From: a virus
Taxonomy: Duplodnaviria > Heunggongvirae > Uroviricota > Caudoviricetes
Virus record (IMG/VR): IMGVR_UViG_2558860274_000005
Coordinates: 1-15,998 of that record
DNA length: 15,998 nucleotides
Strand: one strand, 5' to 3'
The notes beneath the pieces were generated by a model. It made no database searches, was not told the origin of the DNA, and saw only the letters and a program-made list of their open reading frames with translations. Positions 6,646 to 8,230 of this stretch are shown here, piece after piece; the stretch's first letter is position 1, and the number at the start of each line of letters is the position of its first letter. Made by a program: the position numbers and the translations under genes.

Positions 6646-6915
6646 CTATTTCATCCCGCCAATATTTTCCCACGTCCCGTCAGCACGCAGAATTTGCAGC
6701 GGTCTTACCACGCACTGTATCTGCTTTTTATCCGCATCCAGTATCACCACCTGCGTGATTATCCTGTCCTGCTCCGGAATAATACCATTCTCATCGGACT
6801 CCAGGATGTCTGCCGGCCCCAGTCGCAGTTGTGCTGTAAGCGACTGCCCGTGTTCACGGCCATCATGCTTTCCGCAACCGCACAGACGCTGCATAAGTTT
6901 TTTTAGTATGTTCAT
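6646..6915 (-). CDS. Small tail-fibre-tip-like protein in the tfa position (paralogue of the stf C-terminal domain)
   Basis: The ORF-track ORF 6646-7047 overlaps the stf 3' end. The internal ATG at 6913-6915 has a strong SD (AGGAG, 6-nt spacing) and gives an 89-aa product. Its sequence (LRLGPADILESDENG...LDADKKQIQCVVRPLQILRADGTWENI) aligns with the stf C-terminus ([15 protein letters not shown]...[28 protein letters not shown]). Confidence 0.5.
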   Translation of the reverse strand: MNILKKLMQRLCGCGKHDGREHGQSLTAQLRLGPADILESDENGIIPEQDRIITQVVILDADKKQIQCVVRPLQILRADGTWENIGGMK

Positions 6916-6916
6916 G

Positions 6917-8230
6917 TCATTCTCCTGTTCTGCCTGTATCACTGCCCACTTCATCCAGCCCCTTAACATCCTGCCACGGCCCGTCACCAAATCTGACCTG
7001 CAAATGCTGAAACATCCCCTGAACCTGTGTGGCATCTTTGGGGTCAAGAAAGGTCAGTCCGGTGATGAGCGCACCATCTGTATCCGGGAACCAGCCATAG
7101 CTGTTTGTCTCAATAATGCTCATCGGCCCCAGACGAAAACGGATTTGTGTCTCGCCCGGGTCTCCCTTCGGCCCCTGAGGTCCGGTAGCCCCCACCGGAC
7201 CTGCCGCTCCTGTTTCTCCTTTCGGTCCCTGTGGGCCTGCCGGGCCTGCTGCACCGGTATCTCCCTTTGGCCCCTGTGGACCTGTACTTCCCGTCAGACC
7301 GGTCTCTCCCCGTTCACCCCTGTCGCCTTTCGGCCCCTGCGGGCCTGCCGGACCAGTATCTCCTCTCGGCCCCCGTTCGCCGGTTGCCCCGACAGGGCCG
7401 GTGTCACCACGCTCTCCCTTATCCCCCTTCGGCCCCTGAGGGCCGGCGGGCCCCTGTTCCCCCTTTGGCCCGGGAGGTCCCACCACGGTGGGGATTCGGT
7501 TTACGGCGTCTTCCGCCGCTATCCTGCTTTGTTCCGCTGACTGTGCGCTTTCTGCTGACTCCCGGGCTTTTTCTGCTGCGGTCGTTGCATCCCTGGCTGC
7601 ATTACCGGCTGCACTTTCTGCCGTCTTTCTTGACAATTCAGCTTCTGCTGCACTTTGTGATGACTCACTGGCTTTTTGAGCGGCCGCAGAGGCCGAGGAC
7701 GAGGACGCCTCCTCTGACTGCTTTGCAGCGGCTGCACTTTCTGCCGCCTGCCGGGCTGACTCCGATGCCTCCCCTGCTGAAGTGTCAGCATTTGCAGCGC
7801 TCTCTTCTGCCTGACTGGCTGATATGCCGGCATTCCTCGCGGACGTCTCCGCCTCTCCGGCATTCTTCTTCGCCTCCTCAGCGTGACGCGCCACCTCTTC
7901 CACCATCAGTTCAAAGCGACGCAGTGCCTCCGGCCGGACGTCATCCTCCGACATGGCACCGAGAAAATCATTCAGCGTCCCCGGTTGAGAATCTTCATAC
8001 ACGGTGATGGTCCCGGCATGTGACGGAGGAAATCCCTCCACCAACAGAATGACGCTGTACTGACCGTACTCAACGTCCATGCTGTAACGACCGGCTTCAT
8101 CCGGATTTTCAGAGGCCACCGTGTTCACCACCACCGTGCTGCTGGTCCGTCTGGCTTTCAGTTGAATGGTGCAGTTCTCTACCGGTTTTCCTGTGCCGTC
8201 TTTCAGTACACCTGAAATCTTTACTGCCAT
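6917..8230 (-). CDS. stf: Side tail fibre protein with collagen-like repeats
   Basis: N-terminus [28 protein letters not shown]...[21 protein letters not shown] matches the phage lambda Stf N-terminal domain as I recall it. Followed by an Ala/Ser/Glu-rich segment, about 37 Gly-X-Y collagen-like triplets and a distinct C-terminal domain. ATG at 8228-8230 preferred over the upstream GTG. Confidence 0.9.
7151..7489 (-). repeat. Collagen-like Gly-X-Y triplet repeat region inside stf
   Basis: Protein segment [29 protein letters not shown]...[11 protein letters not shown]. The DNA is a GC-rich 9-bp-periodic repeat (GGNCCNNNN) that also generates long spurious ORFs on the opposite strand and in other frames. 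Confidence 0.8.

Follow-up and report, generated by a model that had tools for sequence, protein, structure and literature searches.

Does the small gene that follows a collagen-repeat side tail fibre gene, at the place where tfa usually lies, encode a working protein, and what would that protein be for when its larger part looks like a second copy of the fibre tip? The locus that raises this question belongs to a deleted prophage remnant of the Caudoviricetes (IMG/VR record IMGVR_UViG_2558860274_000005), and coordinates refer to the window, i.e., the whole stretch of 15,998 nucleotides that was analysed (Table 1). The original prediction held that the C-terminus of the fibre and the 89-aa product of the small gene are paralogues, and offered three options for the latter: a stand-alone tip or chaperone module, a template for switching receptor specificity by recombination, or the remains of a tip-swapping event. 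Our reading, to which we give a probability of about one half, is that the small gene is a genuine, separately translated and long-maintained paralogue of the tip, whose product is a dispensable tip partner at the place of tfa. The data are those expected of such an expressed partner protein, whereas neither a relic nor a template for recombination fits them. The pairing itself is already known from Pfam, from PGAP product names and from a study of the phage Sp5 (Mondal et al., 2016; PMC5155283); what is added here is the selection on the small gene, the ribosome-binding site and terminator that go with the junction, the co-occurrence of the two genes, their presence on three fibre shafts, and the 52% DNA identity between the copies.

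Table 1. Positions of the fibre gene, the small gene and neighbouring features in the window.
Feature	Position	Strand	Remarks
Side tail fibre gene stf, EPclA type	6917..8230	minus	437 aa from ATG (NCBI PGAP annotation)
Fibre N-terminal domain PfN, PF08400	7832..8230	minus	Pfam E 3e-69
Collagen Gly-X-Y shaft of fibre	7148..7480	minus	PF01391; repeat family D1
PfC domain, fibre tip copy, residues 365-428	6953..7144	minus	PF06820 E 4e-34; BLASTP
Shine-Dalgarno AGGAG of small gene	6922..6926	minus	within last fibre codons
Small gene, PfC-only paralogue, 89 aa	6646..6915	minus	orthologue of Sp5 ORF68, phi24B 'gp59'
N-terminal extension of small protein, residues 1-27	6835..6915	minus	no fibre counterpart
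PfC domain of small protein, residues 28-89	6649..6834	minus	PF06820 E 9.8e-36
Intrinsic terminator hairpin and U-run	6603..6635	minus	about 10 nt past small-gene stop; inverted repeat I2
Cassette of about 0.86 kb: last collagen domain, PfC tip, small gene, hairpin	6604..7466	minus	
IS66-family transposase C-terminus fragment	6307..6597	minus	abuts terminator
lom (Ail/Lom) gene, 5′ end lost	8295..8845	minus	breakpoint about 8840-8850

The fibre tip and its paralogue

The open reading frame of stf extends to a GTG at 8236 (6917..8236, minus) to give 439 aa, and fibre residues follow the 439-aa numbering throughout. The domain order according to Pfam is PF08400 (residues 3-135), an Ala-rich coil, collagen repeats (253-363), and PF06820 (365-428), which is the architecture of EPclA proteins such as ECs2717 (Ghosh et al., 2012; PMC3368898). 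The PfN domain is the anchor of the fibre to the tail, and residues 3-95 match a PDB entry named 'Tail fiber protein' (9e7m; E 2e-51). PfC is the distal knob of the fibre; it is a trimerisation domain with low helix content, and the fibre copy was demonstrated to trimerise on its own and to nucleate the collagen helix (Ghosh et al., 2012; PMC3368898).

The proposed paralogy is borne out by pairwise alignment. BLASTP aligns fibre residues 366-427 with residues 29-88 of the small protein, with 22 of 62 positions identical (35%) and 37 similar, at an E value of 8e-11, which is the value for one single comparison. Both sequence strings quoted in the original prediction are found in the two proteins, and both proteins cover positions 1-64 of the 64-position profile PF06820 (Phage_fiber_C), scoring 117 bits for the fibre and 122 bits for the small protein against a curated cut-off of 25 bits. 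PF06820 is the sole Pfam match of the small protein (E ≤ 0.01); NCBIfam has no match to it, and neither PADLOC nor Rfam recognises the gene. Over its entire length (positions 1-89 of 89), the protein matches PHROG 576, an 89-aa 'tail fiber protein', at E 5e-60, and PGAP names the product 'phage tail fiber C-terminal domain-containing protein'.

Sequence and profile searches of the PDB gave no PfC relative. The small protein is poorly modelled as an AlphaFold2 monomer: mean pLDDT is 51 when the input alignment comprised both paralogue clades and 55 when the Salmonella-type tip and the P0244 tandem repeats were added, and the two models agree, at low confidence, on an all-beta PfC part. Foldseek with the better model finds nothing below E 0.001 in BFVD, and its weak top matches are tail-fibre proteins (E 5e-3 to 0.07, TM 0.43-0.49, about 60 columns). 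On our reading, the small protein would fold as a beta-rich trimer of its own. In its N-terminal extension, a short helix is predicted for residues 3-11, followed by a low-confidence stretch; the start M-x-[IL]-[LF]-K-K is kept in the Salmonella-type lineage, whereas the Cys-Gly-Cys motif is not. A reading of MNILKKLMQRLCGCG as a lipoprotein signal or signal peptide was rejected, as inspection reveals neither a hydrophobic core nor a lipobox and the cysteines are missing from the Salmonella-type orthologue. The same missing cysteines dispose of a metal-binding reading of CxC...H...H.

Junction, reading frame and selection

The small gene was predicted to carry its own strong Shine-Dalgarno sequence, and AGGAG indeed stands 6 nt upstream of the ATG. 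The junction with stf reads GGAGAATGAcATG, in which stop and start are arranged as TGA-C-ATG, and it is essentially invariant across 75 related loci. Nucleotide diversity has its minimum there (0.004), and pS in the last 11 fibre codons is 0.011, as against about 0.10 elsewhere. Stop and start are tightly coupled, as both the start codon and the ribosome-binding site of the small gene fall within the final codons of stf. The terminator hairpin downstream has a folding energy of -27.8 kcal/mol (z -6.4), and is kept in phage PA2 and in Salmonella-type loci. Some records call the small gene longer, at 102-133 aa; a 133-aa TTG-initiated ORF (6646-7047) and the 102-aa calls were rejected, as they overlap the fibre tip out of frame. 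In the region overlapped by the 133-aa ORF, the fibre frame is the frame under selection, and the start of the distant lineage lines up with the ATG at 6915.

Purifying selection acts on the small gene in its own frame and is stronger there than on the fibre tip. Its pN/pS is 0.14 as a whole (0.10 in the PfC part and 0.30 in the N-terminal extension), compared with 0.24-0.27 for the tip; four of five off-frame controls give at least 1.09, and the fifth, a wobble-matched antisense frame, gives 0.24. These values come from the best 80 of 283 viral matches, a choice that favours intact copies. All of the 75 clean pairs of stf and small gene are intact. Between the E. coli and the Salmonella-type lineages, the small proteins are 58% identical and the tips 29%.

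The virion proteome of phi24B, in its accessible part, includes the small-protein peptides ADGTWENIGGMK and VITQVVILDADKK. The apparent count is 3 peptide-spectrum matches (PSMs) for each of them, versus a total of 2267 for the phi24B fibre, and falls below those of Lom (23), a contaminant according to the phi24B authors, and of the Q protein (19); counts as low as this may reflect contamination. Among the three options of the original prediction, it is the stand-alone module that the conserved start and ribosome-binding site, the purifying selection and, within that part of the proteome, these peptides support.

The remains of a tip-swapping event do not account for such a gene. A functionless, decaying leftover of a former tip exchange would lie directly 3′ of the current tip, as an inserted new tip with its stop would leave it, and truncated or chimeric copies are in fact common in prophage debris; nevertheless, every clean pair is intact, the small gene is more constrained than the tip, the pair is kept both in a lineage 29-58% identical and on three fibre types, and the protein is detected in the phi24B virion data as far as these are accessible. 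We find a relic scarcely credible.

A programmed +1 frameshift at the fibre stop, which would yield a minor fibre with two tandem knobs, seems very improbable to us. In both lineages, the frame of the small gene is indeed +1 to that of the fibre, and the SD-like AGGAG just upstream of UGA-C is reminiscent of prfB, a known frameshift system with an SD-like element. In the accessible part of their data, moreover, the phi24B authors included hypothetical fusion sequences in the search database and labelled the match 'Spike or just gp59?'. However, the P-site codon GAA should be unable to re-pair on AAU, so that there would be no slippery site, and in-frame read-through ends after 17 codons. One lineage has a 1-nt gap at the junction and the other an 11-14-nt overlap, yet both retain the start codon and the ribosome-binding site. 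Peptide searches of the accessible phi24B supplement returned only two peptides, both internal to the small protein, and no frameshift signal was found by Mondal et al. (2016; PMC5155283).

Distribution of the pair and rearrangements between its copies

Wherever a phage record has the tip or the small gene, it has both (296 records; full-length matches in 290 and 293, respectively), and the 89-aa gene is at least 88% identical across them. The family is narrow: a scan of one genome per species, covering 185,579 species, had matches just in E. albertii and in a probable contaminant contig, and a profile search across 1.84 billion representative proteins had no more than 94 matches, mainly Escherichia fragments. 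PfC tip, small gene and terminator hairpin make up a two-gene tip module, which occurs on three kinds of fibre shaft, namely those of lambda-like phages, short-tailed Stx phages and a baseplate phage. The cassette in the window and that of PA2, a short-tailed Stx phage, share 92% identity over a stretch running from the beginning of the collagen to slightly beyond the hairpin, and PA2 has the identical stop-start junction. The locus of the baseplate phage has a 241-aa fibre with PfC at its end; a 79-aa PfC-only gene, intact and with an AGGAGG of its own and a hairpin, overlaps the stop of that fibre. The same gene pair as here, a PF06820-ended fibre followed by an 89-aa PF06820-only gene, is seen in ORF67/ORF68 of the Stx2 phage Sp5 (the fibre ECs1228 and the next gene) and with EPclA/EPclB; ORF68, likewise of 89 residues, is listed as non-essential (Mondal et al., 2016; PMC5155283). 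The Sp5 module sits on an EPclB fibre of an active short-tailed phage and the present one on a lambda-like EPclA fibre of a remnant, which is not a difference in kind.

The idea of a reservoir for tip variation, in which recombination could move the small gene, kept as a spare cassette, onto the fibre and so alter receptor specificity, comes from the same study of Sp5 (Mondal et al., 2016; PMC5155283). Rare natural rearrangements speak for it. In one locus, known from two samples, a 543-nt deletion at a 10-nt microhomology has fused the collagen shaft in frame to a small-type PfC (L083), and in another the order is stf, a hybrid of the small-gene N-terminal half with the tip C-terminal half, and the small gene, an arrangement that is the product of unequal crossover (L084). 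Partial third copies also lie downstream in 15 of the 80 loci that are the best of 283. Codon-aligned DNA of the tip and the small gene is, however, only 51.7% identical with a longest exact match of 9 nt, which is too low for routine homologous exchange, and a repeat search of the window found no direct or inverted DNA repeat connecting the two copies. Their likeness is confined to the protein level. Apart from the prophage tyrosine integrase at 1388-2485, there is no recombinase; no invertase or reverse transcriptase (RT) family was found among the window ORFs scanned with Pfam (all but a few short ones), and no further recombinase and no RT appears in the annotations of related loci. A silent cassette, moreover, needs no conserved start, ribosome-binding site or N-terminal extension, nor the low pN/pS of the whole gene; the best tip-type match is at least 80% identical in every matching record of the phage collection, and the accessible phi24B peptides indicate that the protein is translated. 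Given the low DNA identity, the short exact match and the absence of an RT or a further recombinase from the ORFs and annotations searched, we regard a reservoir as quite improbable. The small gene would accordingly be no DNA template for tip switching, and on the same grounds the predicted template for switching receptor specificity is not upheld.

Two known systems of tip variation resemble this arrangement in part. First, in the diversity-generating retroelement (DGR) of Bordetella phage BPP-1 (mtd, with VR and TR), a second tip-coding copy also lies just 3′ on the same strand. The TR of such a system is a non-coding, near-identical template for reverse transcriptase; in contrast, the second copy here is a selected ORF, and the two copies do not show the near-identity with adenine-specific differences that marks a DGR. 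Second, alternative fibre C-termini adjoin the fibre gene in the invertible segments Mu G, P1 C and e14 Pin as well. These segments need inverted crossover sites, alternatives in opposite orientation and a serine invertase, while here both copies are on the minus strand, without flanking inverted repeats and without an invertase family among the ORFs scanned. The original prediction, which had discounted a classical invertible segment because both copies share one strand, was right in this respect.

Candidate roles at the tfa position

The order of genes is lom, stf and small gene, with no tfa homologue, as expected from the prediction that the small gene takes the usual position of tfa. In lambda Stf/Tfa, P2 H/G and Mu S/U, too, a small gene lies directly 3′ of the fibre gene, is coupled to it and is exchanged with the tip. 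Tfa proteins are not paralogues of the fibre tip, and are needed for fibre folding. The small gene shares with tfa its place directly 3′ of stf and its inheritance with the tip, but has no match to the Tfa family (Caudo_TAP, which we take to be PF02413); as Pfam finds only PF06820, it does not represent the 3′ portion of a tfa gene disrupted by a frameshift. It also differs from Tfa in being dispensable: Sp5 without ORF68 can still plaque on K-12 and lysogenise it (Mondal et al., 2016; PMC5155283), and recombinant EPclA needs no small gene to trimerise in laboratory E. coli (Ghosh et al., 2012; PMC3368898). Both observations weigh against a partner of the fibre, and a requirement for the small protein in assembly is therefore not supported.

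The preferred reading is accordingly worded as that of an accessory. The small protein would work with the fibre tip, dispensably, where tfa lies in lambda, and might either aid the in-register assembly of the tip or ride on it in sub-stoichiometric amounts. A metagenomic fibre-like protein with four PfC-like units in tandem gives a precedent for stacking. Going beyond this, we tentatively propose, while holding it on the whole less than likely, that the PfC-only protein represents a new kind of fibre partner in which a copy of the tip domain replaces Tfa, as a tip-mimic register helper or as a terminal bead in trans, and that the two-gene module moves between lambda-like, short-tailed and baseplate-type phages of enterobacteria bearing a T3SS.

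Two other roles are compatible with an expressed protein. One is that of a stoichiometric distal cap or adhesin: the small protein would stack as trimers on the PfC knob, and these would be the actual receptor-binding end. PfC-like units do stack in tandem in other fibre-like proteins (four of them in one metagenomic protein), the peptides in the accessible phi24B data come from purified virions, and dispensability on K-12 would be expected if the target receptor were absent from K-12. In those same data, however, two peptides at apparent counts of 3 PSMs, below even Lom and the Q protein, are far under a 1:1 ratio to the fibre. The small protein is also more conserved than the tip in both identity between lineages and pN/pS (0.10 for its PfC part versus 0.27), contrary to the usual pattern for an outermost receptor-binding part, and we think a cap rather unlikely. 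In a related arrangement, a small protein encoded 3′ of the distal fibre folds or caps it, as with the gp38 adhesin of T2/T6 and the gp38 chaperone of T4, encoded after gp37; in T2-type phages gp38 sits on gp37. To our knowledge, gp38 is unrelated in sequence to the small protein and does not duplicate the tip of gp37.

The other is a role unrelated to fibre assembly, for example that of a soluble trimer released at lysis which blocks receptors on debris or sibling cells, or a role in the lysogen. Strong conservation of a gene that is non-essential in the laboratory would suit it, as would a protein that is at most a trace component of the virion according to the accessible phi24B data. This role is nonetheless unlikely: a PfC-tipped fibre always accompanies the small gene, which in intact phages never occurs by itself; translation of the small gene is coupled to that of stf; and its product has, by inspection, no signal peptide or lipobox and, by search, no PADLOC match.

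Returning to the accessory partner of the tip, a conserved companion that is dispensable on K-12 would have a function seen only on natural hosts or in the efficiency of assembly. The collagen-like fibres of Shiga-toxin and effector prophages have a role in the spread of virulence genes among E. coli strains, and knowing the function of the small gene would help with the prediction or engineering of host range. For annotation, the small gene is real and starts at the ATG at 6915, and it is neither a tail fibre as such nor a remnant of tfa. A 78-nt 'tail assembly protein' pseudogene annotated by PGAP was likewise rejected as a tfa remnant; it lies 3′ of the small gene and overlies the terminator hairpin.

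The fibre tip and its small paralogue

The C-terminal part of the side tail fibre gene (stf) and the small gene that follows it encode the same kind of domain. Fibre residues 366-427 and small-protein residues 29-88 share 22 of 62 identities in BLASTP (E 8e-11), and the Pfam domain PF06820 (Phage_fiber_C, here PfC) is matched end to end by both the fibre (E 4e-34) and the small protein (E 9.8e-36). The paralogy claimed in the original prediction is therefore confirmed, at the protein level only: the two PfC copies have 51.7% codon-aligned DNA identity with a longest exact match of 9 nt, and a repeat search of the window found no DNA repeat joining them. 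The small protein also matches PHROG 576 across its whole length, and the remaining fibre domains are an N-terminal PF08400, an Ala-rich coil and a collagen shaft. The small gene does have the Shine-Dalgarno sequence of its own that had been noticed, AGGAG, which lies within the last fibre codons, 6 nt upstream of its ATG.

Features of the window discussed in the text
Feature	Position	Strand	Description
stf	6917-8236	minus	439 aa from GTG
stf, NCBI PGAP start	ATG at 8230	minus	437 aa
Small gene	6646-6915	minus	89 aa; starts one base past the fibre stop codon
DUF4765 protein, intact	2818-6222	plus	1134 aa; PF15962, 1707 bits
IS66-family transposase C-terminus fragment	6307-6597		abuts the 78-nt PGAP call
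PGAP 'tail assembly protein' pseudogene	6568-6645		78 nt; directly after the small gene, in identical ESBL 15 sequence
lom'	from 8295		first ~15 codons missing (5′ end lost); breakpoint ~8840-8850
HTH_36 replication-type gene fragment	8818-9078		joined to lom'
CII-like gene	9423-10007
CI-type repressor	10304-10981		divergent

The PfC paralogy of tip and small protein is real but has been described before. This fibre type was characterised as EPclA, whose PfC domain trimerises alone, is low in helix content and re-nucleates the collagen helix; production of the fibre in laboratory E. coli did not involve the small gene, which that study does not mention (Ghosh et al., 2012, PMC3368898). The same gene pair was reported in the short-tailed Stx2 phage Sp5, where a frameshift signal was not found and an 'intragenomic reservoir' for fibre variation was proposed (Mondal et al., 2016, PMC5155283). 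The supplementary proteome of a 2026 preprint on phi24B contains ADGTWENIGGMK and VITQVVILDADKK, a pair of peptides found in the small protein and nowhere else; the authors place both under hypothetical entries that fuse fibre and small protein, with the label 'Spike or just gp59?' (doi 10.64898/2026.04.10.717836). Window positions 6202-8800 are 100% identical to the chromosome of E. coli ESBL 15, in which PGAP names the small gene product 'phage tail fiber C-terminal domain-containing protein'. The pairing was thus already in the literature and databases; what is added here is evidence that the small gene is expressed, is under selection and belongs to a mobile tip module of two genes.

Selection on the small gene

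Eighty related viral loci were fetched as the best of 283 matches, a sample that favours intact copies; 75 of the 80 hold a clean tip-small pair, and the small ORF is intact in all 75. Over 50 distinct alleles, pN/pS is 0.14 for the whole small gene (0.10 in the PfC part, 0.30 in the N-terminal 27 residues) and 0.24-0.27 for the fibre tip. Four of five off-frame controls gave 1.09-4.10, and the fifth, a wobble-matched antisense frame, gave 0.24. The junction GGAGAATGAcATGAA is essentially invariant across the clean pairs; in the final 11 codons of the fibre gene, where the ribosome-binding site of the small gene lies, pS is 0.011 versus ~0.10 elsewhere, and nucleotide diversity falls to its minimum of 0.004 at the junction. 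About 10 nt beyond the small-gene stop lies a strong intrinsic terminator (-27.8 kcal/mol, z -6.4). From the intact ORFs, the pN/pS values, the invariant junction and ribosome-binding codons and the terminator, it follows that the small gene is expressed and selected as a protein. This bears out the earlier suggestion of a stand-alone module and contradicts the alternative that the gene is the relic of an old tip replacement, which keeps only the slimmest chance. A +1 frameshift that would fuse the small gene to the fibre is very improbable, since a slippery site is missing and the junction geometry is unlike between lineages.

Two loci give anecdotal backing to the idea that the small gene is kept as a spare tip for fibre variation. 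First, in the fibre fragment of locus L083 (1-291), collagen is fused in frame to a small-type PfC through a 543-nt deletion with 10-nt microhomology. Second, locus L084 (1382-3246) holds, in order, stf, a 92-aa hybrid that joins the first 40 residues of the small protein to the C-terminal half of the tip, and an ordinary small gene; the extra hybrid gene is the product of an unequal crossover. These are rare rearrangements between the paralogues, however, and with 52% DNA identity between the copies, recombinase and reverse transcriptase genes absent from what was scanned, and selection at the protein level, tip exchange is an occasional accident and not the purpose of the gene. The recombination template of the original prediction is accordingly disfavoured, and a reservoir is improbable.

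Opposite the small gene and the collagen region runs a 323-aa antisense ORF (6569-7540, plus strand), a by-product of GC-rich Gly-X-Y repeats; in its part over the small gene, two antisense frames have pN/pS ~1.5 and only the wobble-matched frame is low (0.24). On the coding strand, small-gene codons 4-6 (Leu-Lys-Lys) include seven consecutive A residues (6898-6904). The Salmonella-type gene has an A7 run of its own over Lys-Lys, but in a different register; this may be plain AAA codon use.

Distribution of the module and role of the small protein

The small protein has matches in 296 records of the phage collection (293 at full length), and so does the tip (290 at full length), all of them Stx or E. 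coli lambdoid phages; the order lom-stf-small is frequent among phages that convert for Stx1a, Stx2a and Stx2c (e.g., 1717, 2851 and BP-4795). In the short-tailed phage PA2 (Sepvirinae), the N-terminal part of the fibre differs from that of the window. Its DNA is 92% identical to window 7466-6604, a stretch that opens with the last collagen domain and closes a little beyond the hairpin, and the 1-nt gap between fibre and small gene is the same. A distant lineage was first met as a Salmonella enterica protein (P0260). In its locus L093, a 241-aa fibre without collagen, adjoining Baseplate_J and DUF2612 genes, ends in PfC (E 5e-16). Next comes an intact PfC-only gene of 79 aa (E 6e-25), its ATG 11 nt upstream of the fibre stop codon, with AGGAGG in front of the ATG and a similar hairpin after the gene. 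The module thus occurs on three kinds of fibre shaft. Between the E. coli and Salmonella-type lineages small proteins are 58% identical and tips 29%, and the pair is kept in both; therefore the duplication is old and the copies have been retained together, the small copy evolving more slowly than the tip. The PfC family is narrow in distribution: a profile searched against 1.84 billion representative proteins matched 94 of them, and a one-genome-per-species scan gave only E. albertii and one probable contaminant. A 725-nt contig of a Xanthomonas pisi assembly (L090; DSM 18956, contig_138) carries a small gene with 93% identity to that of the window, almost certainly through contamination with E. 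coli. Tandem PfC-like units (VVVLDAD...LQVRRADGTW) that resemble the small protein more than the tip occur in a handful of distant proteins of fibre-like type: four units of ~75 aa, then collagen, in P0244 (L092 3505-5202), six PfC-matched stretches in P0254 and eleven in P0228 (3037 aa).

The small gene is tied to the fibre tip, translationally coupled to it and exchanged along with it. In lambda, P2 and Mu, fibre tips and cognate partners such as Tfa are linked in this way. By sequence, the small protein does not belong to Tfa; that it is a tip mimic replacing Tfa is a tentative reading. There is no strict need for it: EPclA trimerises by itself, and Sp5 stays infectious on K-12 when ORF68, the orthologue of the small gene, is missing (Mondal et al., 2016, PMC5155283). 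In the available phi24B proteome, ADGTWENIGGMK and VITQVVILDADKK score 3 each in the column taken as PSM count and the fibre 2267 PSMs, far below 1:1, which argues against a stoichiometric structural role in these virions. We give a probability of about one half to the small protein being a dispensable accessory partner of the fibre tip; it would form a stand-alone PfC trimer that may improve assembly, or may sit on the knob in small amounts. A role unrelated to the fibre is unlikely. Two AF2 monomer models of the small protein are poor (pLDDT 51 and 55), and what they have in common is limited to a short helix at the N-terminus and some six strands; a Foldseek search with such a poor model against viral models gave weak matches only, to tail-fibre proteins, and PDB sequence and profile searches found no related solved structure.

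The prophage remnant and its cargo border

The prophage in the window is a deletion remnant. Its J, tail, head and lysis genes are gone, so the early rightward operon is now aimed straight into lom'-stf-small, and the fibre and small gene are unable to build a virion alone. The lom'-HTH_36 junction was found in one aligned piece in none of the complete E. coli genomes in the collection. On the opposite side of the fibre pair lie an IS66 fragment, the intact DUF4765 gene and an integrase. The DUF4765 gene, which in E. coli ESBL 15 is in four frameshifted pieces, has the integrase on one side and the fibre end of the prophage on the other, a place that in related phages holds genes for type III effectors. 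The PGAP pseudogene call looks spurious, because its stretch consists of the terminator hairpin and flanks.

The small gene is the last conserved gene ahead of this variable cargo region, diversity rising to 0.3-0.7 directly past it, and its 3′ end, together with the hairpin, seems to serve repeatedly as the border at which effector cassettes recombine. Fifteen of the 80 related loci (e.g., L011 4954-5100, L027 5048-5116) hold a third PfC copy, reduced to a partial remnant, in the same orientation 0.7-1.05 kb further downstream; it is 73-78% identical to the 3′ half of the small gene and lies among NleG-like effector genes. A GC-rich hairpin that resembles a terminator and has a T-run occupies 8247-8268 (minus strand), in the interval from lom to the start of the fibre gene.
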